This document shows positions 3,660 through 12,245 of a DNA stretch of 17,097 nt, one piece after another (position 1 is the stretch's first letter; each line of letters opens with the position of its first letter). The stretch is taken from the UHGV virus genome UHGV-1592266; one strand, 5' to 3'. The translations under genes were made by a program, and so were the position numbers. The notes under the pieces are model-generated. The model worked only from the letters and a program-made list of their open reading frames with translations. It did not search any database and had not been told where the DNA came from. This DNA is from a virus.

Positions 3660-4043
3660 TTAGAAGGGAATTGAATCGTCGTATTCAGGATGATTTTGAT
3701 GATTGCTACTTTGCTGCTGTTGGCTGTTTCCTGAGGTTGCAAATCCAATCTTTGCATTCAGTAATTCAAGAGTGATTGATTGACCATTTTGCCCCTGATA
3801 AACATCAACCCTGATGTTTTCTCCGGTAATTTCCACAATGCCACCTTCAACAAGAACACTACGGTAGTAATCCGCTTGCGCTCCCGGCTTGGCAAATACA
3901 ACGGCGCTGTAGTTTGTCCATTCTTTCTTTTTTGTCTGGCGATCGTAATACTGAACGCCAGCACGGATGTTGAATCCGATATTTTCCCCGGCCTGAAACT
4001 CTCTTGCGGGCTTGTTTAGTCTTACAGTAATCGAATGTGCCAT
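3660..4043 (-). CDS. short phage single-stranded DNA-binding protein (127 aa)
   Basis: The internal ATG at 4043 (MAHSITVRLNK...) overlaps the erf stop as TAATG. A Q-rich linker and the C-terminal tip EYDDSIPF resemble the SSB acidic tail (DDDIPF). Confidence 0.75.
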   Translation of the reverse strand: MAHSITVRLNKPAREFQAGENIGFNIRAGVQYYDRQTKKKEWTNYSAVVFAKPGAQADYYRSVLVEGGIVEITGENIRVDVYQGQNGQSITLELLNAKIGFATSGNSQQQQSSNHQNHPEYDDSIPF

Positions 4044-4648
4044 TAAGCAGCCGCTCCTTCTAATTCGTCTCGTCTGATGTTGTAAACGTCCTGCGCTTTG
4101 TGCTGCTCCGGTGTTCCTTCGAGCATCTTCCACGCTTTGGCGAACGCCTGTTTAAGCTCTTCCACGGTGTTTTTCTGCATTGCTGCGTCAGTGAATGCTT
4201 TTAGAACCTGTTCAGGTGTAGGTGATGGTTTTGATTGCTTTGCTACTGCGTTCTGCTGATGTTTATGCTCGTCTGTATCTGCATCTTTCGCATCATCAAT
4301 GCCGAACAAACCATTGAGGCAATACTTGCGTGCATAAGAGCTTGTAGCTCCCGTAACTTGTGCAGAATCCATCCCTTTCTTGCTTTCTTCCTCTCGTGCA
4401 AGAGCGGTTGCCGTATGACTGTTTTCGCCATCGGTAATAGTTGCCGTGGCTTTCACGTAATACCGATCACCAATCAACACAACTTCATCGCTGATTGATA
4501 AAAACAGGCCATTCAGTAACGGCTTAACGCCTTCAAGAATGTCTTCGCAGCTTCTGTATTTATATTTTCCGAATGAGTTGTACTGATTCTTTGGCGCGTT
4601 CAGATTCTCCTGAATAGCTGCCAGTCTTGCGTAAAATTCTTTGCTCAT
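4043..4648 (-). CDS. erf: Erf-family single-strand annealing recombinase
   Basis: From the ATG at 4648: MSKEFYARLAAIQENLNAPKNQYNSFGKYKYRSCEDILEGVKPLL...VTGATSSYARKYCLNGLFGIDD. This is near-identical to my memory of P22 Erf. Confidence 0.9.
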   Translation of the reverse strand: MSKEFYARLAAIQENLNAPKNQYNSFGKYKYRSCEDILEGVKPLLNGLFLSISDEVVLIGDRYYVKATATITDGENSHTATALAREEESKKGMDSAQVTGATSSYARKYCLNGLFGIDDAKDADTDEHKHQQNAVAKQSKPSPTPEQVLKAFTDAAMQKNTVEELKQAFAKAWKMLEGTPEQHKAQDVYNIRRDELEGAAA

Positions 4649-4658
4649 ATGATTGTTC

Positions 4659-4829
4659 TCAGAATGGACATTCCCCAAGGAAATAACGCTGATTTAATAC
4701 TTCGACTCGGGACAAATTAAGGCATACCCGCATTCCTTCGCGGTCGCCATTATGGCGATACCAGAGAGCTTTCTGCGTGTACATGCGTCTCTGTAACTTG
4801 CTCTCCTTCACTGTGGTTGCAAGTGACAT
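4659..4829 (-). CDS. small basic protein, 56 aa, at the arf position upstream of erf
   Basis: Hand-translated: AAGGAG lies 6 nt before the ATG at 4829. Product MSLATTVKESKLQRRMYTQKALWYRHNGDREGMRVCLNLSRVEVLNQRYFLGECPF, TGA at 4659-4661, 10 nt before the erf start. Confidence 0.55.
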   Translation of the reverse strand: MSLATTVKESKLQRRMYTQKALWYRHNGDREGMRVCLNLSRVEVLNQRYFLGECPF

Positions 4830-4908
4830 GAATATCTCCTTCGTTACCGATTAATTCTTTCATCTGACGAATGAATTCTTCGTCTGACCAGTTATCTGTA
4901 AAACTCAT
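4750..4908 (-). CDS. small acidic ORF, 52 aa, ATGA-coupled to kil; overlaps 4659..4829 by 80 nt in another frame
   Basis: Hand-translated: the ATG at 4908 overlaps the kil stop (ATGA). Product MSFTDNWSDEEFIRQMKELIGNEGDIHVTCNHSEGEQVTETHVHAESSLVSP. The long overlap makes it doubtful that both ORFs are translated in full. Confidence 0.4.
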   Translation of the reverse strand: MSFTDNWSDEEFIRQMKELIGNEGDIHVTCNHSEGEQVTETHVHAESSLVSP

Positions 4909-5057
4909 TTCCTGCGATACCACGGAAGGTTGATAGCTGATTTCATCGCTTTATTTGCTTCAAGCCACATTTTTGAATCACCAATAAATCTGGCTATTAC
5001 TGCTTTGTTCTGTGCAGCACGAAGCATCTGGTGATTGATGGCTATTTCATTGCGCAT
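4905..5057 (-). CDS. kil: Kil-like host cell-division inhibitor, 50 aa
   Basis: Hand-translated: MRNEIAINHQMLRAAQNKAVIARFIGDSKMWLEANKAMKSAINLPWYRRK. The IARFIGDSKMWLEA core resembles lambda Kil (IATFIGDEKMFREA, from memory). The position directly after cIII matches lambda and P22. Confidence 0.6.
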   Translation of the reverse strand: MRNEIAINHQMLRAAQNKAVIARFIGDSKMWLEANKAMKSAINLPWYRRK

Positions 5058-5173
5058 AATAAGACCTCAACTCTTTTCCATCCGTCACGTAATTTACGGG
5101 TGATTCGTTCAAGTAAAGATTCATTTAATTGGAAGGCACCCATGCGAGCGCCTCCCGCGATTGCGTAAATCAT
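5042..5173 (-). CDS. cIII: CIII-like inhibitor of FtsH (43 aa)
   Basis: Hand-translated from the ATG at 5173 (AAGGA upstream): MIYAIAGGARMGAFQLNESLLERITRKLRDGWKRVEVLLCAMK. The ESLLERITRKLRDGWKR core equals the lambda CIII amphipathic helix. Confidence 0.85.
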   Translation of the reverse strand: MIYAIAGGARMGAFQLNESLLERITRKLRDGWKRVEVLLCAMK

Positions 5174-5197
5174 GGGTGGTTCCTTATGTTGGTTTTA

Positions 5198-6166
5198 TTA
5201 GTAGGTTATTTTTGTTGCGAATACTTCGCCTTTTACGATGGCTGTTATGATATTTTTAGCAACATCTTCTGATGCACCAACCTTGATAAGGTCAGCAAGT
5301 ATTTTGTTATTTACTTCTTTCCGGTGAGCTTTATCCTTTGCTCTACGCTCTTCTTCGTCCTTGATTCTTTTTTCTTCTGCTATTCTGGCTTGCTCTTTTG
5401 CTTCAGCCTCGCGCCGGATTCGTTCAGCCTCCTCCTGTGCTTTTCGGCGTTCTGCTTCAATTGCCGCCTGCTTTTCTCTTTCAGCTCGTTCTGCTGCCTC
5501 TTTTGCTTCGCGCTGTGCTCGTTGCTCGGCTTCAATGCGTTCACGCTCTGCACGTTCCGCTGCGGCCTTAGCTTCTGCTTCTCGCCTTGCTGCTGCTTCA
5601 ATTTCGGCTTTTGCCTTTGCTTCGGCTTCTGCTCTGGCTTTCTCTTCAGCTTCTCTTTTTAAGCGTTCTTCATGCTCTCGCTTTTCCTGCTCCGCTTTGA
5701 GTCTTGCCTCTTCTCTTTGGCGGTCAAATTCGCGATCCATCAAAATAGCTATTTCATGGTCAGACTCAATTTGCTTTGCGAGAGCTTCAGCTGCTGCCTT
5801 AGCTTCTTCTTCGGCTTTAATCCGCGCCTGTTCTTCCTCATAATCAGTAAGAGGCTGGCGCGCCTTGGCTTTCAGCTCATCAAGGCGATCACGCACTGTC
5901 TTGCGGTTGGCATCAATTAGCTTTGGAATTTCCTTCAGTTCAGCAACAAGGTCTTTGCCAAGACCATCGAGATATGTTTTCGTCTGCGCAACTTTATACG
6001 CCAGAGAAGCGATCTCCTTTCTGCCCTTTGCCGTTGTGATATCAGGCACAAAGGACATAACTTCACGTTCAACCTTTTGAAGGATTTCTTCAATCTGGTC
6101 GGCAGACTGAAATACAGTCATTGCATTTGCTTTTTCAATAACAACTAAATCTGTTACTTCACTCAT
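5198..6166 (-). CDS. 322-aa protein: globular N-terminal ~120 aa (possibly DUF1351-like), ~170-residue E/A/K/R-rich helix, small C-terminal domain
   Basis: I chose the ATG at 6166 (MSEVTDLVVIEK...) with GGAGGA 4 nt upstream. The longer track start at 6220 would read through the terminator hairpin at 6186..6207. Residues ~125-300 are almost entirely E, A, K and R. Confidence 0.8.
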   Translation of the reverse strand: MSEVTDLVVIEKANAMTVFQSADQIEEILQKVEREVMSFVPDITTAKGRKEIASLAYKVAQTKTYLDGLGKDLVAELKEIPKLIDANRKTVRDRLDELKAKARQPLTDYEEEQARIKAEEEAKAAAEALAKQIESDHEIAILMDREFDRQREEARLKAEQEKREHEERLKREAEEKARAEAEAKAKAEIEAAARREAEAKAAAERAERERIEAEQRAQREAKEAAERAEREKQAAIEAERRKAQEEAERIRREAEAKEQARIAEEKRIKDEEERRAKDKAHRKEVNNKILADLIKVGASEDVAKNIITAIVKGEVFATKITY

Positions 6167-6178
6167 ATATCCTCCGTC

Positions 6179-6207
6179 AAAAAAATTGCCCTCACACTGG
6201 AGGGCAA
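6179..6207 (-). terminator. intrinsic terminator inside the pL operon
   Basis: The minus strand reads TTGCCCTC-CAGTGT-GAGGGCAA followed by TTTTTTT: an 8-bp GC-rich stem (6186-6193 / 6200-6207) and a U-tract (6179-6185). Confidence 0.75.
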
Positions 6208-6298
6208 AGAAGATTTCCAATAATCAGAACAAGTCGGCTCCTGTTTAGTTACGAGCGACATTGCTCACATAGCAGACTCGCAAATCTGCTATAGGTGC

Positions 6299-6460
6299 TT
6301 ATTCGCATCGCATGACAACATCAAATTTTTCGAGATTACTTTGTCGCAACAATCCCTCTTCTACGCGGTCAGCTTTTCTATAATTATCAAATTCGAAATG
6401 TTTAATTACTTCTTTCGTTTCTCGCTCTATAACTTCAACAATGTATTTCTTATTCATCAT
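6299..6460 (-). CDS. small hypothetical protein, 53 aa
   Basis: The ATG at 6460 (MMNKKYIVEVIERETKEVIKHFEFDNYRK...) forms an ATGA overlap with the stop of 6457..6735 and follows GGGGGAAG. The longer track start is embedded in the upstream gene. Confidence 0.6.
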   Translation of the reverse strand: MMNKKYIVEVIERETKEVIKHFEFDNYRKADRVEEGLLRQSNLEKFDVVMRCE

Positions 6461-6735
6461 TCTTCCCCCAGGGCCTTGCTGATGGCTGCCTTGGCTCGTT
6501 TGTATTCGGTTAACTCTCTGCACCCTTCGTCATGCTCGTAAAGGAAGACAAGCTCTTGCAGTGCTTCAAGCAAATCAGGAGCTGCTGCTATCAGTAGCGC
6601 ATCCTCCCTTTCATTTCTTGTTGCTGCTTCAATGTATGTGTCACCAATCGTCACACCATGGAACGTAGTCATCATCTCGTTGACGTTTCTAACCGTGTAC
6701 TTCCATTTACCAGGCGTACCCTTAAACTCTTTCAT
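6457..6735 (-). CDS. small protein resembling an Ea22 C-terminal domain (92 aa); paralogue of 7256..7507
   Basis: ATG at 6735 (MKEFKGTPGKWKY...) follows GAGGTG. It shares AAPDLLEALQ and KA..AISKALGEE with ORF 7256..7507. Confidence 0.75.
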   Translation of the reverse strand: MKEFKGTPGKWKYTVRNVNEMMTTFHGVTIGDTYIEAATRNEREDALLIAAAPDLLEALQELVFLYEHDEGCRELTEYKRAKAAISKALGEE

Positions 6736-6738
6736 ATC

Positions 6739-6783
6739 CACCTCTGTTGTTTATGCCAAAAATAAAGGCCGACTATGCGGCCT
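6739..6783 (-). repeat. copy A of a directly repeated ~45-bp linker (terminator plus RBS)
   Basis: The plus strand reads cacctctgt..ttatgccaaaaataaaggccgactatgcggcct. The 33-nt stretch 6751..6783 is identical to 7525..7557, and cacctctgt (6739-6747) is identical to 7512-7520. Confidence 0.9.
6753..6783 (-). terminator. intrinsic terminator (inside linker copy A)
   Basis: The minus strand reads AGGCCG-CATAGT-CGGCCT followed by TTATTTTTGG. The hairpin overlaps the TAG stop of ORF 6782..7252. Confidence 0.7.
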
Positions 6784-7252
6784 AGTAGAATACCCAATTT
6801 TCTGTTTCTTGGTTGTGTCCAAAGTTATATTCAATATCTGGTGTTGATGTATCAATATTCTTCATCCCATCAACAAGAGTTGATACAACAGCCAAATCTT
6901 GTTTGATTCTCATCAAATGGTATTTCTTCCGGCGCAATAAACTTTCAATGGCAAGTTTCTTCGTCGGGAACGCAAAAGATCTTTCTGCATTTTTTGCTAC
7001 TTTCTTAATTGCATATCTATTTCTCCTTTGTTTCCATTCCTGTAACCACTGATTTGGTGCTGGTTTAAAATTAACAATCCAATGCGCAGGAACCAACCAT
7101 GCATAATGCTCTGTCTGATGAAAAGCTATATATTGAAGTGCGAATATTTTGATTCCATCTTCTTCAACTGTCGCTTGGAATCTCCAGAAAACAGGCATTC
7201 CATCATGTTCAGTTTCTGATTCAGGAAAAGGTACGCTCCATGATTTTGTCAT
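6782..7252 (-). CDS. hypothetical protein, 156 aa, AT-rich orphan
   Basis: Full-length track ORF lying between the two linker copies. It has a Trp/His-rich N-terminal half and a basic middle (KQRRNRYAIKKVAKN, LLRRKKYHLMRIK). No family recognised. Confidence 0.7.
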   Translation of the reverse strand: MTKSWSVPFPESETEHDGMPVFWRFQATVEEDGIKIFALQYIAFHQTEHYAWLVPAHWIVNFKPAPNQWLQEWKQRRNRYAIKKVAKNAERSFAFPTKKLAIESLLRRKKYHLMRIKQDLAVVSTLVDGMKNIDTSTPDIEYNFGHNQETENWVFY

Positions 7253-7255
7253 ATA

Positions 7256-7507
7256 TTACTCATCTCCAAGGGCTTTGCTGATTGCTGACTGTGCTTTCGA
7301 TACTTCATCAGGATAATGGTCATTCCAGTTTTGCTTGTATGCCTTGTTTAGCATCGCTTGCAGGGCTTCGAGCAAATCAGGAGCTGCCTCCATCAATCTC
7401 ACATCACCTCGATGGATGGTTGTATCGTCAAACGTGAAATAAACCCCATCATCGTTAAATCCAGCGCCAACAACATTCCATGGCCTTTTCATTCTTCCTA
7501 CTGTCAT
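7256..7507 (-). CDS. small protein resembling an Ea22 C-terminal domain (83 aa); paralogue of 6457..6735
   Basis: ATG at 7507 follows the linker GAGGTG. MEAAPDLLEALQAML and KAQSAISKALGDE match the paralogue. Confidence 0.75.
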   Translation of the reverse strand: MTVGRMKRPWNVVGAGFNDDGVYFTFDDTTIHRGDVRLMEAAPDLLEALQAMLNKAYKQNWNDHYPDEVSKAQSAISKALGDE

Positions 7508-7511
7508 TATT

Positions 7512-7557
7512 CACCTCTGTGTATTTATGCCAAAAATAAAGGCCGACTATGCGGCCT
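7512..7557 (-). repeat. copy B of the directly repeated ~45-bp linker
   Basis: See copy A. The two copies are in direct orientation, 774 bp apart. Confidence 0.9.
7528..7557 (-). terminator. intrinsic terminator (inside linker copy B)
   Basis: Same AGGCCG-CATAGT-CGGCCT hairpin plus TTATTTTTGG, 4 nt after the TAA of ORF 7562..8011. Confidence 0.7.
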
Positions 7558-7561
7558 GAAA

Positions 7562-8011
7562 TTACTTAACCAATGATGCTGCATATTCGATAAGGTAAAG
7601 CTTTGGGGCCAGCCAAATTTTTAACCAAGTCATATTGGTTACTACACCAATAATAAAAATCCCCCACAGAGTCAAAACTACAACCAATGGCATGATAAGA
7701 AGATTAATATCACCTTTGCTATCCCAAACCATTGTCGGCCTGTATTTGGGATTTCCTTTCTCCCATGAATATCCTTCATCACCGATTTTACCTGTCTCAA
7801 CTCTTTGGCACTGCTTCTTCATAAACCAGAAAACCAGTGGGATTGTTAAAATGGCCATTAATGTTTTAATCAGACTGTCAACCATATTCCATAGCAGCAA
7901 CTGATGAACAACATCAGGAATCTGTGCCTGGCTGAATGAAACAGCCGCGTCTATTCCATTACTGGCTTTTTGCAGTAGTTCTACGAGAATCTTGTTTGCT
8001 TGTTCTTCCAT
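7562..8011 (-). CDS. predicted two-pass inner-membrane protein, 149 aa, unknown function
   Basis: Internal ATG at 8011 (MEEQANKILVELLQK...) follows GAGGTTAGAT. Hydrophobic spans are LLLWNMVDSLIKTLMAILTIPLVFWFM and INLLIMPLVVVLTLWGIFIIGVV. The longer track start overlaps the upstream small ORF. Confidence 0.75.
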   Translation of the reverse strand: MEEQANKILVELLQKASNGIDAAVSFSQAQIPDVVHQLLLWNMVDSLIKTLMAILTIPLVFWFMKKQCQRVETGKIGDEGYSWEKGNPKYRPTMVWDSKGDINLLIMPLVVVLTLWGIFIIGVVTNMTWLKIWLAPKLYLIEYAASLVK

Positions 8012-8019
8012 ATCTAACC

Positions 8020-8184
8020 TCAAATAAGTGGTTTGCTGCGAAAATAAATACGTTCCCACCAAGTTCCGTATCTATCTATCCAGTTACACCAATCATCGAC
8101 ATTCCATTTTGTTGTGTCGCATTTTGGCAACTGGCATGAATATCCACCTTCTTTGTAAAGTCGGCGTTTGACTTTCTTGAGCAT
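8020..8184 (-). CDS. small Trp/Cys-rich protein, 54 aa, immediately downstream of N
   Basis: Below the track cutoff, so hand-translated. GAGGTGAGCC precedes the ATG at 8184, and that SD overlaps the N stop. Product MLKKVKRRLYKEGGYSCQLPKCDTTKWNVDDWCNWIDRYGTWWERIYFRSKPLI, TGA at 8020-8022. Confidence 0.6.
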   Translation of the reverse strand: MLKKVKRRLYKEGGYSCQLPKCDTTKWNVDDWCNWIDRYGTWWERIYFRSKPLI

Positions 8185-8192
8185 GGCTCACC

Positions 8193-8525
8193 TCAATCGT
8201 AATAAGCTGGAATTGATTTTCCGCGTTGCTTCTGGCGGCCTGAGCAAGTCACACCCATTTCACTGCGTGGCTTGCTGTACCATGTGCGCTGATTCTTGCG
8301 CTCAATACGTTGCAGGTTGCTTTCAATCTGTTCGTGGTATTCAGCTAGCACCGTAAGGTCTATAGGATTCAGTGCGCTTTCTACTCGTGATTTCGGTTTG
8401 CGATTCAGCGAGAGAATAGGGCGGTTAACTGGTTTTGCGCTTACCCCAACCAACAGGGGATTTGCTGCTTTCCATTGAGCCTGTTTCTCTGCGCGACGTT
8501 CGCGGCGGCGTGTTTGTGCATCCAT
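8193..8525 (-). CDS. N: antitermination protein N, lambda type
   Basis: MDAQTRRRERRAEKQAQWKAANPLLVGVSAKPVNRPILSLNRKPKSRVESALNPIDLTVLAEYH... matches lambda N, including the arginine-rich motif. Only the last ~25 residues differ from my memory of lambda N. Lambda-type boxB sites are present at both nut sites. Confidence 0.95.
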   Translation of the reverse strand: MDAQTRRRERRAEKQAQWKAANPLLVGVSAKPVNRPILSLNRKPKSRVESALNPIDLTVLAEYHEQIESNLQRIERKNQRTWYSKPRSEMGVTCSGRQKQRGKSIPAYYD

Positions 8526-8793
8526 CTGGATTCTCCTGTCAGTTAGCTTTGGTGGTGTGGTGGCTGGTAGTCTAGCTCCAGCTTGTTGAGTCTCATTCGG
8601 AGGGGTATAACCGGCACCCCAGCGATTTTTCCATGCGACAACGTGCGCGTTATGGCGGCCTTATCGCCCGCGGCTCCCCATCTCGTCCACGCTATTGCTA
8701 GCGTTGGGAGCGCTTCACCGCTCAACAGTAGGTAAGCACTTGCCAGTGACTAGCTGGCTTCACCACACCCCAAAGCCTTCTGCTTTGAATGCT
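8526..8793 (-). promoter_or_regulatory. N leader (5' UTR) with a long closing helix and several internal hairpins; larger than the lambda leader
   Basis: On the minus-strand RNA, GGUGUGGUG (8761-8769) pairs with CACCACACC (8554-8562), enclosing ~190 nt. Internal hairpins include ACGCUA-GCAA-UAGCGU (GNRA loop), GAGCG-GUGAAG-CGCUC, GGGGU-N9-ACCCC and GGCG-N7-CGCC. A long-range GUUGAG/CUCAAC pairing is also possible. The N SD (AGGAG) follows at 8532-8536. Confidence 0.5.
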
Positions 8794-8824
8794 GCCCTTC
8801 TTCAGGGCTTAATTTTTAAGAGCA
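8794..8824 (-). promoter_or_regulatory. nutL (boxA plus boxB)
   Basis: The minus strand reads TGCTCTTAA AAATTAA GCCCTGAAGAAGGGC. BoxB at 8794-8808 is the lambda nutL boxB. BoxA at 8816-8824 differs at its first base from the CGCTCTTA of nutR. Confidence 0.9.
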
Positions 8825-8868
8825 TCACCTTCATGGTGGTTAGCGCGTCCTGCTGATGGCTTAAAATT

Positions 8869-8936
8869 ACAAGAAAGATTGTATACTGTAAACAAGAAAT
8901 ATTGTAAAAAGAGGCGTGAAAAACAAACTCCGTTGT
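8869..8936 (-). promoter_or_regulatory. oL operators (three ACAA-N6-TTGT sites) and pL
   Basis: ACAAGAAAGATTGT at 8869-8882, ACAAGAAATATTGT at 8892-8905 and ACAAACTCCGTTGT at 8923-8936 all fit the 434 operator consensus. A candidate pL on the minus strand is TTTACA-N17-TATACA spanning the two proximal operators; the exact hexamers are uncertain. Confidence 0.75.
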
Positions 8937-8963
8937 TTTTAAACGGAAAATAGTTTGTTTTTT
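8921..8963 (-). terminator. candidate t-imm terminator ending the PRM transcript (hairpin flanked by T-runs on both strands)
   Basis: AAACAAACT (8921-8929) pairs with AGTTTGTTT (8952-8960), and inner CCGTT (8930-8934) pairs with AACGG (8942-8946). U-rich tracts follow in both directions. It lies 24 nt after the hex-locus stop and overlaps the distal oL site. Confidence 0.45.
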
Positions 8964-8986
8964 GGTTATCGAGATTGAGGTGGGGA

Positions 8987-10339
<1,353 letters not shown>

Positions 10340-10347
10340 GACATTCC

Positions 10348-10379
10348 CGCTCTTACACATCCCCGCCCTGAAAAAGGGC
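10348..10379 (+). promoter_or_regulatory. nutR (boxA CGCTCTTA, boxB GCCCTGAAAAAGGGC)
   Basis: BoxA at 10348-10355 and boxB at 10365-10379 are identical to lambda nutR. The following stretch up to the cII SD (TAAGGAAATACTTACATATG) reads like the lambda tR1 / cII leader. Confidence 0.9.
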
Positions 10380-10448
10380 ATCAAATTAAACCACACCTAT
10401 GGTGTATGCATTTATTTGCATACATTCAATCAATTGTTATCTAAGGAA

Positions 10449-10481
10449 ATACTTACATATGCAACTTACAAGTACTCGCAA
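10449..10481 (-). promoter_or_regulatory. pRE-like CII-activated promoter
   Basis: The minus strand reads TTGCGAGTACTTGT (a TTGC-N6-TTGT repeat, 10468-10481), then 13 nt, then AAGTAT (10449-10454). This is the same geometry as lambda pRE (TTGC-N6-TTGC, 13 nt, AAGTAT). Confidence 0.5.
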
Positions 10482-10737
10482 GAAAGCGAATGCAATTACA
10501 AGCAACATCCTGAATCGAATTGCTGTACGTGGTCAGCGAAAGGTTGCCGACGCGTTAGGGATTAATGAATCGCAAATTTCGCGATGGAAAGATAGCTTCA
10601 TCCCCAAAATGGGAATGCTTCTGGCTGTTCTTGAATGGGGTGTTGAAGACGAGGAGTTGGCGGAACTGGCTAAGAAAGTAGCCAGAATGCTGACAAAAGA
10701 AAAAGCCCCGAAGAACGGCGAATTCTTCGAGGCCTGA
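10459..10737 (+). CDS. cII: CII transcriptional activator
   Basis: Internal ATG at 10459 with the lambda cII SD. GINESQISRWKDSFIPKMGMLLAVLEWGV parallels lambda VDKSQISRWKRDWIPKFSMLLAVLEWGV. Confidence 0.9.
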   Translation: MQLTSTRKKANAITSNILNRIAVRGQRKVADALGINESQISRWKDSFIPKMGMLLAVLEWGVEDEELAELAKKVARMLTKEKAPKNGEFFEA

Positions 10738-10761
10738 TGTAGAAAGACTGGATCAATCCAC
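10697..10761 (-). ncRNA. oop: oop-like antisense RNA overlapping the cII 3' end
   Basis: Strong minus-strand terminator: GCCUCGAAGAA (10723-10733) pairs with UUCUUCGGGGC (10705-10715) over 11 bp including one G-U, with a 7-nt loop and then UUUUUCUUUU. The candidate 5' end GUGGAUUGAUCCAGU resembles the lambda oop 5' end GUUGAUAGAUCCAGU. Candidate pO is TGGAAT-N17-CATAAT, with the -10 at 10769-10774. Confidence 0.5.
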
Positions 10762-10771
10762 AGGAGTAATT

Positions 10772-11416
10772 ATGACATACGAAAATGACAAATTCCAGGT
10801 TCTGAAGAGCATGAAGGTGCCAGATGATTTTAAATCAAATGGCTTTGTTTATGTGCTTTCTAATGAGTGCATGCCAGGAATTTATAAGATTGGGATGACT
10901 AAGCATTCACCAGAAGTTAGGGCTAAAGAAATTTCAGCCTCTACTGGCGTTCCTAAGCCATTTAAGGTGATAGCAGCCTTTCATTCAAATAATCCCGCAT
11001 CAGATGAAAAACTCATGCATAAAGCCTTTGCAAAAGAGAGGCTTAGTGATAATCGAGAGTTTTTCAAGCTTGAAGATAATGAGCTTTCTGAATCTCTAAA
11101 TGAAATAAGGGCGCTGGTTGGCCCTGAAAGAAATGGCGAGACGGCAGAATACGCAATTTACGACTCATTCATTTCTTTTCGCCATGAAAATGAGCTTGAT
11201 CTTAATGAGGAGCTTATAGAGCAAGGTCTGGGTAGTGTAGTTGGTCATCTTCCTGCGGTGAAAAATTTCCTTATTCGCGCCGGAATTGATTACGCGAAGC
11301 AACTGATAAGCAAATATAACTCATCGATAGTTATTAATACAGATGGCAGTGTGGTGATGGTTAAGTCTCTTGAAGCCCAATGCTTTGATGCGGAGGTTGG
11401 AAATGAGCCTGGCTGA
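10772..11416 (+). CDS. T5orf172/MUG113 (GIY-YIG-superfamily-like) domain protein, 214 aa, inserted between cII and O
   Basis: AGGAG lies 5 nt before the ATG. GFVYVLSNECMPGIYKIGMTKHSPEVRAKEISASTGVPKPFKVIAAFHSNNPASDEKLMHKAFAKERLSDNREFFKL fits the T5orf172 pattern. I recognise no family for the C-terminal ~110 aa. Confidence 0.8.
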   Translation: MTYENDKFQVLKSMKVPDDFKSNGFVYVLSNECMPGIYKIGMTKHSPEVRAKEISASTGVPKPFKVIAAFHSNNPASDEKLMHKAFAKERLSDNREFFKLEDNELSESLNEIRALVGPERNGETAEYAIYDSFISFRHENELDLNEELIEQGLGSVVGHLPAVKNFLIRAGIDYAKQLISKYNSSIVINTDGSVVMVKSLEAQCFDAEVGNEPG

Positions 11417-12245
11417 AGTATTTTACCTGTCGAAGAGTGAACCTGTTGAACAGGAGCGAAGAGTGGCTGATATCGATGATGGTTACACCAGATTCGCTAA
11501 CGAGCTGCTGGAAGCTATCGCAAGTGCTGATTTAACCGCTCGCCAGTTGAAAGTTATGCTGGCCTACGTCCGGAAAACATATGGATTCAATAAGAAAACA
11601 GATCGAATAGCCGATGAGCAAATTGCTCAGTTAACAGGACTGTCAAGGCAGAATGTTAACAAGGCTAAAAAAGAACTGATTTCAATGAATTGCCTGTTTA
11701 TGGATGGAAATCAAATCGGTGTAAACAGTGAGGTATCTGCGTGGCAATTCAGCAAGTGTCTCCAAGTTAGCAACTTTGTCTCGAAGTTAGAGACAAAAAA
11801 TGTCTCCAAATTAGAGACACTCAATGTCTCGAAGTTAGAGACACACAAAAGACATTCTTTAAAGACAAAAGAAAATATTAATAAACCCCCTATATCCCCC
11901 AAAAAAGTTTCTCAGAAGTTCGACCCGCTAGAAACAGAGTTGCCTGATTGGTTATCAGCAGAAACATGGTTGTCGTGGGTTACCTATCGCAAGGAGATAG
12001 GTAAGTCGATCAAGTCTAAGCAAAGTGTCACTCAGGCTATCAACGTTCTAAGCAGAAGTCTGGAGAAGGGATATACACCTGAAGAAATTATAAACCAGAG
12101 CATCGCCAGTGGTTGGCAGGGGATTTTTGAACCCAAGACTCCAAAGGGGAAATCTCAACCGAGGCCGCAGCAGCGAGCTATGCAGGAAAACTTTGCCGCC
12201 AAAGATTACGGGCAAACTGAAATGCCTTCATGGGCGCAGGAGTGA
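11403..12245 (+). CDS. O: lambda O-type replication initiator
   Basis: ATG at 11403 follows GGAGGT. DDGYTRFANELLEAIASADLTARQLKVMLAYVRKTYGFNKKTDRIADEQIAQLTGLSRQNVNKAKKEL is the Phage_rep_O N-terminal domain pattern. The iterons lie within the gene, as in lambda. Confidence 0.9.
   Translation: MSLAEVFYLSKSEPVEQERRVADIDDGYTRFANELLEAIASADLTARQLKVMLAYVRKTYGFNKKTDRIADEQIAQLTGLSRQNVNKAKKELISMNCLFMDGNQIGVNSEVSAWQFSKCLQVSNFVSKLETKNVSKLETLNVSKLETHKRHSLKTKENINKPPISPKKVSQKFDPLETELPDWLSAETWLSWVTYRKEIGKSIKSKQSVTQAINVLSRSLEKGYTPEEIINQSIASGWQGIFEPKTPKGKSQPRPQQRAMQENFAAKDYGQTEMPSWAQE
11757..11843. repeat. replication origin iterons (four 19-bp units)
   Basis: TGTCTCCAAGTTAGCAACT (11757), TGTCTCGAAGTTAGAGACA (11777), TGTCTCCAAATTAGAGACA (11801) and TGTCTCGAAGTTAGAGACA (11825). 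Units 2-4 have inverted TGTCTC/GAGACA arms. The spacing is 20, 24 and 24 bp. Confidence 0.85.
11844..11905. other. AT-rich unwinding region of ori
   Basis: cacaaaagacattctttaaagacaaaagaaaatattaataaacc... lies directly after the iterons, the same layout as lambda ori. Confidence 0.7.

Follow-up and report, generated by a model that had tools for sequence, protein, structure and literature searches.

In the lambda pL operon, RNA polymerase that has been modified by the N protein reads through the intrinsic terminators (the tL2a-d cluster and tL3). An integron cassette is characterized by an attC-like imperfect palindrome with R' and R'' core sites, together with a dedicated integrase. Morons, as Juhala et al. 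are said to have described them in 2000, are promoter-gene-terminator insertions in lambdoid genomes, and in 2001 Clark et al. reportedly recognized seven boundary sequences. Such short conserved boundary sequences of lambdoid phages were proposed as foci of recombination (Clark et al, 2001, for HK620; Susskind and Botstein, 1978), as cited in PMC3029335. In the nin region, small genes are packed with ATGA-type stop/start overlaps, and in P22-like phages terminators within operons are common and their roles are given as 'not known' (PMC8022706).

The window analysed here, the whole 17,097-nucleotide stretch from the virus genome UHGV-1592266, comprises the immunity and early-left (pL) region of a mosaic lambdoid phage, and phage records each cover at most 59% of it. 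We use T for the hairpin AGGCCGCATAGTCGGCCT together with its U-tract and a linker of ~25 nt, p83 and p92 for the 83- and 92-amino-acid paralogues of phrog_1273, o156 and o53 for the open reading frames that come next to them, and TM149 for a 149-amino-acid membrane-helix protein. On the minus strand the order is a cI-type repressor gene, nutL boxB, N, a DUF5484 gene, TM149, T copy 2, p83, o156, T copy 1, p92, and o53, continuing past o53 with a tL2a homologue and the PreS/LPR1 sRNA region and then a 322-amino-acid Sf6-gp33-like gene. After this gene comes a segment in which the close relatives Bas106 and mEp213 have cIII, kil, and Erf. With N and nutL upstream in this order, p83, o156, p92, and o53 are therefore open reading frames of the pL operon downstream of N. 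The features are as follows:

9388-10020, minus strand: cI-type repressor gene
8794-8808, minus strand: nutL boxB GCCCTGAAGAAGGGC, an exact match with 0 expected by chance
8193-8525, minus strand: lambda-type antiterminator N (PF11438, N36, E 1.6e-26)
7562-8011, minus strand: TM149, 149-amino-acid membrane-helix protein of phrog_3054, the commonest gene upstream of T
7540-7557, minus strand: hairpin of T copy 2, AGGCCG-CATAGT-CGGCCT, from the repeat search, terminator scan, and folding
7508-7539, minus strand: U-tract TTATTTTTGG and linker CATAAATACACAGAGGTGAATA of T copy 2, bearing the Shine-Dalgarno sequence of p83, from sequence and alignment
7256-7507, minus strand: p83, 83-amino-acid paralogue of phrog_1273 (PHROGs, E 8e-24)
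6782-7252, minus strand: o156, 156-amino-acid open reading frame of phrog_1636 (PHROGs), with a TAG stop codon that overlaps T copy 1
6766-6783, minus strand: hairpin of T copy 1, identical to that of copy 2, from the repeat search and terminator scan
6736-6765, minus strand: U-tract and linker CATAAACAACAGAGGTGGAT of T copy 1, bearing the Shine-Dalgarno sequence of p92, from sequence and alignment
6457-6735, minus strand: p92, 92-amino-acid paralogue of phrog_1273 (PHROGs, E 5e-18; labelled PF27050 in a precomputed database of Pfam assignments)
6299-6460, minus strand: o53, 53-amino-acid open reading frame of phrog_6949 (PHROGs), with a start that overlaps the p92 stop codon (ATGA)
6186-6207, minus strand: homologue of the lambda tL2a terminator, at the 3' end of a PreS/LPR1-like sRNA region (~6180-6262)

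An earlier note on this DNA had described a segment of which 33 nt recur identically 774 bp apart. The repeat search finds the exact direct repeat to be one base longer, with positions 6750-6783 and 7524-7557 100% identical over 34 nt at a spacing of 774 bp, and we estimate the chance expectation of an exact 34-mer repeat in 17 kb to be ~5e-13. The further shared sequence that the note had pointed out, CAGAGGTG on the minus strand and CACCTCTGT on the plus strand, is indeed common to both copies. The minus-strand anatomy is also as described there, with each copy reading as a stop codon, AGGCCG-CATAGT-CGGCCT, the U-tract, CATAAA, 14-16 nt that include CAGAGGTG with the Shine-Dalgarno sequence, and ATG. 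When the two copies are aligned on the minus strand they match from AGGCCG to the ATG, a distance of ~50 nt, and the sole differences, a 2-nt indel and substitutions, all lie 3' of GGCATAAA. At the left edge of copy 2 the TAA stop codon of TM149 (7564-7562) is followed by TTTC (4 nt) and then the hairpin (7557-7540), with the ATG of p83 at 7507. At the left edge of copy 1 the TAG stop codon of o156 (6784-6782) overlaps the first two hairpin bases (AG), with the ATG of p92 at 6735. A terminator scan detects both hairpins, each with a 6-bp stem that contains five G-C pairs and a 6-nt loop, and the hairpin by itself folds at -9.2 kcal/mol (z = -2.6). Directly 3' of the stem, both copies have the U-rich run UUUAUUUUU, in which 8 of 9 bases are U. 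T thus has the sequence features of an intrinsic terminator, namely a GC-rich stem-loop on the transcribed strand and a U-rich tract 3' of the stem, and, moving downstream from N, copy 2 is the first site that looks like one.

Two other functions for the segment were considered and rejected. Translational control through pairing of the U-tract with the Shine-Dalgarno sequence was discarded because the predicted pairing is no better than in shuffled sequences (z = -1.3 and -1.8). A promoter in copy 2 (TTGGCA-16-AATAAT, found in that copy only) was discarded because it overlaps the start codon of p83 and because promoter-like sites are not enriched, with 6 found and 11.3 expected in shuffled sequence. 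The Pas sRNAs of EPEC prophages, which are located in the late region, are irrelevant to T. A search of Rfam with region 4000-11000 at E values up to 1 gave no match to an RNA family, and a text search of the literature gave no match to the hairpin sequence.

The genes that adjoin T in the window are small. The earlier note had recognized a small paralogue after each copy, and both proteins belong to phrog_1273; they are 44% identical and have AAPDLLEALQ and AISKALG[DE]E in common. The layout of p92 consists of a conserved N-terminal part up to AAPDLLEALQ, a hypervariable middle, and a conserved AISKALGEE end. The spacing to the next genes is likewise as the note had it, with a 3-nt gap between p83 and o156 (TAA-tat-ATG at 7258-7250) and an ATGA overlap between p92 and o53 at 6460-6457. 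There are 28 homologues of o156 at ≥97% DNA identity, and o156 is 100% identical to its counterparts in loci L113 and L130. Searches of Pfam, NCBIfam, and PADLOC gave no match for p83, p92, o156, o53, or TM149, and their PHROGs families have no function label. A profile search of PDB sequences returned nothing under E 0.28, and the AlphaFold2 model of p92, built from 26 sequences, was poor (pLDDT 60, with the N-terminal 40 residues below 50).

The core of T is not unique to this genome. T was found with a 65-nt query in 223 phage records, from Escherichia, Stx-converting, Salmonella, and Shigella phages and in partial form from lambda, and with a 51-nt query in 1439 of 5426 complete E. coli genomes (approximately a quarter), with ~1700 prophage loci in E. 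coli that contain it. Its 20-nt core is present in at least 120 IMG/VR contigs. In lambda, a remnant of T located directly after the ral stop codon retains a stretch, TAGTGGCCTTTATTTTTGGCATAAATAACAGAAT, that spans the 3' arm, the U-tract, and the linker; its 5' arm is degenerate, and the remnant folds at -4.1 kcal/mol. In the GenBank record of mEp234 this hairpin is labelled a 'rho-independent terminator', and a tL2a-like one comes next. Given this annotation, and given that boundary sequences are a published concept (Clark et al, 2001, as cited in PMC3029335), the statement in the earlier note that it knew of no description of the repeat unit was too strong. A control scan in which the loop was left free found the AGGCCG/CGGCCT stem followed by a T-run to be a generic terminator shape across unrelated bacteria, with 78 different loops among 120 matches and CATAGT in none of them. 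Because the generic stem occurs with other loops, and the phage copies share both loop and linker, the phage copies are homologous by descent. In the phage copies the loop CATAGT is nearly invariant, the variants CATGGT and AATAGT also being found, and both T copies in the window are the commonest variant in the population.

The sequences that flank T were catalogued in IMG/VR loci by using the core as an anchor and typing both sides, in samples that contain redundant prophages. Among the matches listed, 110 instances present 19 upstream and 22 downstream sequence types in 39 combinations, and each of the two commonest upstream genes is paired with at least 5 downstream types. Again among the matches listed, half of the T copies are followed by a non-coding spacer toward PreS/LPR1, as in lambda, and 26 of 125 instances (approximately a fifth) are followed by a member of the paralogue family. 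There is some linkage disequilibrium between the left and right modules, with a mutual information of 1.17 compared to 0.60 in permutations. Conservation per position is ~0.5 through position -1, rises to 1.0 at the first base of the hairpin, and then decays gradually in the 3' direction (110 IMG/VR instances among the matches listed). At least 17 unrelated upstream genes, among the matches listed, adjoin the hairpin with a stop codon 0-4 nt away, and two types of open reading frame run into the hairpin and end at the TAG of its loop. Genomes with 0, 1, or 2 copies of T are found, in many gene orders.

T therefore resembles the boundary sequences in being one short sequence with unrelated flanks on both sides, situated at gene and module boundaries, the concept being as cited in PMC3029335. 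Compared with the boundary sequences, T is internal to a single operon, where its neighbours are small accessory genes instead of large modules, and it doubles as a putative terminator. The comparison with morons is also partial. The T-linked genes are, like morons, small, accessory, terminator-associated, variably present, and of lower GC content (36-47%, compared to 50-56% for N). However, they have no convincing promoter of their own, are apparently expressed from pL, and are preceded by the terminator as often as they are followed by it.

We consider it likely that T is a conserved rho-independent terminator of the lambdoid pL operon that doubles as a mosaic boundary, and that the window was assembled from modules that bear T. 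In this model, T would occupy the hypervariable stretch of accessory genes that separates N from the tL2a/PreS sRNA. In the absence of N, transcripts from pL would stop at the first copy of T that they encounter, after N, DUF5484, and TM149, while N-modified polymerase loaded at nutL would read through both copies of T and tL2a. We infer this N-dependent read-through from lambda biology: the N of the window has the arginine-rich boxB-binding motif (N36), and its nutL boxB lies between pL and N, upstream of the terminators. With a lambda-type N and a perfect nutL boxB upstream, read-through that depends on N would therefore be the expected regime. The suggestion in the earlier note that N gates the two gene pairs is correct in that T lies downstream of a lambda-type N and a perfect nutL. 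It does not extend to a special gate for these pairs, since in any lambdoid phage all genes past the first pL terminator depend on N in this way. T resembles the named pL terminators of lambda in operon, orientation, hairpin and U-tract, and position downstream of N and nutL, and tL2a is itself present in the window, ~560 bp further downstream of T. It differs in not being one of them, and lambda's own T has a replaced 5' arm and a weak stem.

Since the same 20-50 nt are shared by phages with unrelated flanks, T could also serve as a homology patch, at which homologous recombination would reassort left and right modules. This recombination may be performed by a phage Erf-type annealing protein or by host RecA.

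Some properties of T fit this model less readily. At 6 bp and -9.2 kcal/mol the stem is short. Hairpins are broken or missing in some phages, as in the lambda remnant and in 8 cases where only the linker precedes a paralogue gene, and terminator function is therefore not strictly maintained. Passive homologous exchange does not fully account for the sharp left boundary at the base of the hairpin, shared by at least 17 unrelated genes. T could be a sequence-specific docking element, acting as DNA or RNA and recognized by a phage or host factor, that directs the insertion of accessory genes at the base of the hairpin. Such an element would explain why so many unrelated genes end 0-4 nt from the hairpin, why two types of open reading frame use the TAG in the loop, and why the loop is nearly invariant though any loop would serve a terminator. 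Selection for a compact joint, together with recent spread, can account for both the sharp left edge and the invariant loop, and we regard a docking element as very unlikely. The near invariance of CATAGT bears equally on the idea that T acts mainly as an RNA rather than as a terminator, either as a protective 3' end or processing site or as the Hfq-binding 3' end of sRNAs derived from 3' UTRs. Sequence-specific recognition would explain the conservation of the loop, a GC-rich hairpin with a U-tract is also the 3' module of Hfq-dependent sRNAs, and the neighbouring tL2a forms, in lambda, the 3' end of the Hfq-bound sRNA PreS/LPR1. However, Rfam contains no matching family for the region searched, the loop does vary, and recent common descent with recombinational spread explains the conservation of the loop equally well, which leaves a primary role as RNA unlikely.

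The earlier note had instead proposed a discrete cassette of terminator, small conserved protein, and variable partner. In its strongest form, T would be the 5' end of a dedicated exchangeable cassette in which the phrog_1273 protein is an 'adaptor' for the partner and the two form a functional pair, such as toxin and antidote or a specificity pair. Several observations appear to favour this arrangement. Among the matches listed for the T-anchored set, T immediately precedes 26 of the 29 paralogue genes, and the next gene starts close by, at -4 to +29 nt, in 64 of 82 paralogue genes. Its junction with the paralogue, ...ALG[DE]E/TGATG, is conserved. Whichever gene comes next, its Shine-Dalgarno sequence and start codon are overlapped by the conserved ...ALG[DE]E end. 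These next genes represent 21 unrelated families, among them a TraR/DksA-like zinc-finger type, a MEWxKCSERMP type, and DUF5484. Viewed from T, however, ~79% of instances precede something other than a paralogue among the matches listed. Viewed from the 82 paralogue genes, only 22 are preceded by a canonical T; the others have a variant or remnant (13), the linker only (8), an unrelated hairpin (8), or nothing terminator-like (30), with 1 having too short an upstream sequence to judge. Paralogues that are 99-100% identical carry different partners, either o53 or a 70-amino-acid gene. The partners also occur without a paralogue: o156 lies directly after T in 13 loci and after a paralogue only in L112, L135, and the window, and o53 elsewhere sits after an unrelated 53-amino-acid gene. 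In lambdoid early operons, tight coupling of the ATGA type is widespread (PMC8022706). The ATGA overlap of p92 and o53, and the TGATG and TAATG junctions in 64 of the 82 family members, resemble the packing of the nin region, the differences being that the T-linked genes are in the early-left rather than the early-right operon and that the junction is embedded in the conserved C-terminal ALG[DE]E. The conserved co-occurrence of partners that characterizes toxin-antitoxin pairs is not seen, with 21 partner families and an o156 that is mostly without p83, and PADLOC gave no match to a known or candidate defence system. Judged from its sequence, T is also unlike the recombination site of an integron cassette, being an 18-nt perfect hairpin with a U-tract and without R'/R'' core sites, and no integron-type integrase is associated with T in the annotated loci inspected. 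The triplet of terminator, paralogue, and partner recurs as one of many combinations. Because only some copies of T precede a paralogue, and because the partners vary, it is not a unit, and we consider a dedicated cassette quite unlikely.

T is thus a widespread putative terminator, already annotated as such, and a probable mosaic joint, an ordinary feature of mosaic lambdoid genomes, and it reveals no new regulatory or cassette mechanism. It does offer a clean and quantifiable illustration of the shuffling of small accessory genes by lambdoid phages, in which a terminator-linker of ~50 nt, carried by prophages of approximately a quarter of complete E. coli genomes, joins many left and right modules. 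T could be used as a reference point when the accessory genes that lie between N and the PreS sRNA are catalogued, and as a natural substrate with which to measure short-homology recombination by phage annealing proteins.

The arrangement of the window as a whole was not found elsewhere: no place in the phage records covers at least 80% of 6200-8200, and none of the 5426 complete E. coli genomes covers at least 80% of 6250-8050. Its parts recur in the catalogue of architectures. TM149-T-PreS is present in 19 loci, TM149-T-p92 with a single T in L089, L115, L136, L158, and L166, and TM149-T-o156-T-p92 in L113 and L130, where the copies of T are 541 bp apart. Single loci have T-p83-o156-PreS (L112), N-o156-T-p92-o53 (L126), and TM149-T-54aa-T-o156, in which a 54-amino-acid gene lies between the copies of T (L102). 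The window is collinear with L113 and L130 at 97-99%, with two exceptions: p83 takes the place of a 30-nt linker that joins T to o156, and o53 that of a 70-amino-acid gene. Between its o156 and the p83-linked o156 of L112 there are 10 differing sites, beginning at position 50, and its T copy 2 and linker are identical to the T-linker of L112. Comparison of the window with L113, L112, and L166, which are few genomes, is consistent with crossovers in T. In what looks like the simplest history, reconstructed from a few SNPs, an L113-type backbone (TM149-T-o156-T-p92) would have acquired T-p83-o156(5') from an L112-type phage in place of T-linker-o156(5'), with one crossover in T and a second in the initial 50 nt of o156. 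The window would then have two copies of T because gene modules, each with its own T, were joined there by recombination, and not because of a local duplication.

A recent tandem duplication within this genome, followed by divergence, might be expected from the direct repeat with its exact 34-nt core and from the presence of a gene of the same family after each copy. However, the paralogues are only 44% identical, DNA similarity outside T is limited to a 49-nt stretch at 82% identity, and the second genes are unrelated. Furthermore, each unit is found separately in other phages at 97-100% identity, and both copies of T are simply the commonest variant in the population. These observations make a duplication extremely improbable. 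The proposal in the earlier note that the identical linkers are substrates for exchange or deletion is plausible, as natural genomes with TM149-T-p92 and with TM149-T-o156-T-p92 exist. The single-T genomes (TM149-T-p92) are the exact product expected from T-by-T recombination in the window, which supports the copies as such substrates.

Further joints probably lie within coding sequence, both at the segment that encodes AAPDLLEALQ and at the ...ALG[DE]E-stop/start junction, which in addition provides the next Shine-Dalgarno sequence. The 49-nt stretch of similarity between the p83 and p92 genes of the window is located at the AAPDLLEALQ segment. Chimeric paralogues (P0011, P0019, P0031, and the gene in L135) consist of a p92 N-terminal part and a p83 C-terminal part that are joined at AAPDLLEALQ.

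Two upstream ORFs, unrelated to each other, run into the hairpin of T, the repeated terminator-plus-linker element of the early-left operon, in IMG/VR loci. The stop codon of both read-in ORFs is the TAG within the T loop (CATAGT), and the encoded proteins end in ...(E/K)-A-A-stop. A related linker is found in the window at the junction between the DUF5484 gene and TM149, which encodes a 149-aa membrane-helix protein.

IMG/VR loci, e.g. L049 and L076: upstream type GACTTCCTTCCG, stop taken from the T loop
IMG/VR loci, e.g. L043 and L070: upstream type ...ACATCA, stop taken from the T loop
Window 8020-8050, (-): DUF5484 gene 3' end together with the ribosome binding site of TM149 (GCAGCAAACCACTTATTTGAGGTTAGATATG), ~86% identity to the non-coding linker GGCAGCAAGCCACTTATCTGAGGTGAGATATG

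The linker GGCAGCAAGCCACTTATCTGAGGTGAGATATG follows terminator T in another phage group. By this identity, a single linker sequence is coding in the window and intergenic elsewhere.

The phrog_1273 family, to which the paralogues p83 and p92 downstream of T belong, is itself mosaic (window 6457-6735 and homologues P0001-P0120). Its N-terminal 60 residues are conserved, with AAPDLLEALQ at their end, and are followed by a hypervariable middle of 15-35 residues and then AISKALGEE, the conserved end. Chimeras of p92-type and p83-type sequence occur naturally within the family. The related phage mEp213 (L002/L205) carries two different N antiterminator genes in tandem early-left modules, in the order lambda-type N, p92, o53 (the 53-aa ORF after p92), PreS, and HK620-type N.

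Beyond the o53 module lies a region homologous to PreS/LPR1, an sRNA of lambda, followed by a gene that is kept 3' of PreS across many lambdoid phages.

Window ~6266-6292, (-): 11-bp hairpin (AUAGCAGAUUU-GCGA-...), directly upstream of the PreS/LPR1 5' end
Window 6180-6262, (-): PreS/LPR1 homologue, with a terminator at 6186-6207
Window 5198-6166, (-): 322-aa protein, homologue of Sf6 gp33
Lambda (L003) ~1203-1241, (-): 12-bp hairpin at the matching relative position, sequence unrelated to the window hairpin

The PreS/LPR1 region is nearly identical to that of lambda from GAGCAATGTCGC to the T-run, and the 3' end of the lambda sRNA is the terminator tL2a. In the window, the o53 module meets this region at a mosaic boundary that coincides with the 5' end of the reported ~88-nt sRNA. 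The hairpins upstream of this end in the window and in lambda are alike in shape but differ in sequence, and therefore may act as a processing signal. The long, repetitive, E/A/K/R-rich middle of the 322-aa protein accounts for direct-repeat families D1-D3.

Three further features lie elsewhere in the window.

7506-7533, (-): promoter-like TTGGCA-16-AATAAT, 10/12 match
8987-9463, (-): 158-aa ORF, flanked by the cI-type repressor and by pL
11777-11848: three tandem 24-bp repeats (TGTCTCGAAGTTAGAGACA...), family D8

The promoter-like sequence, present at T copy 2 only, arises where the conserved linker meets the beginning of p83, with its -10 element overlapping the p83 ATG, and is probably a chance match. 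The 158-aa ORF occupies the position of rex in lambda and is followed by a terminator-like site at 8948-8928. Within its product, an internal Met precedes a stretch resembling a signal peptide. We consider the ORF a candidate for an exclusion or conversion gene expressed in lysogens. Each D8 repeat is an inverted repeat. Placed by offset from the annotation of the close relative Bas106, the D8 repeats lie ~400 nt within the O-like replication gene and are therefore probably origin iterons.
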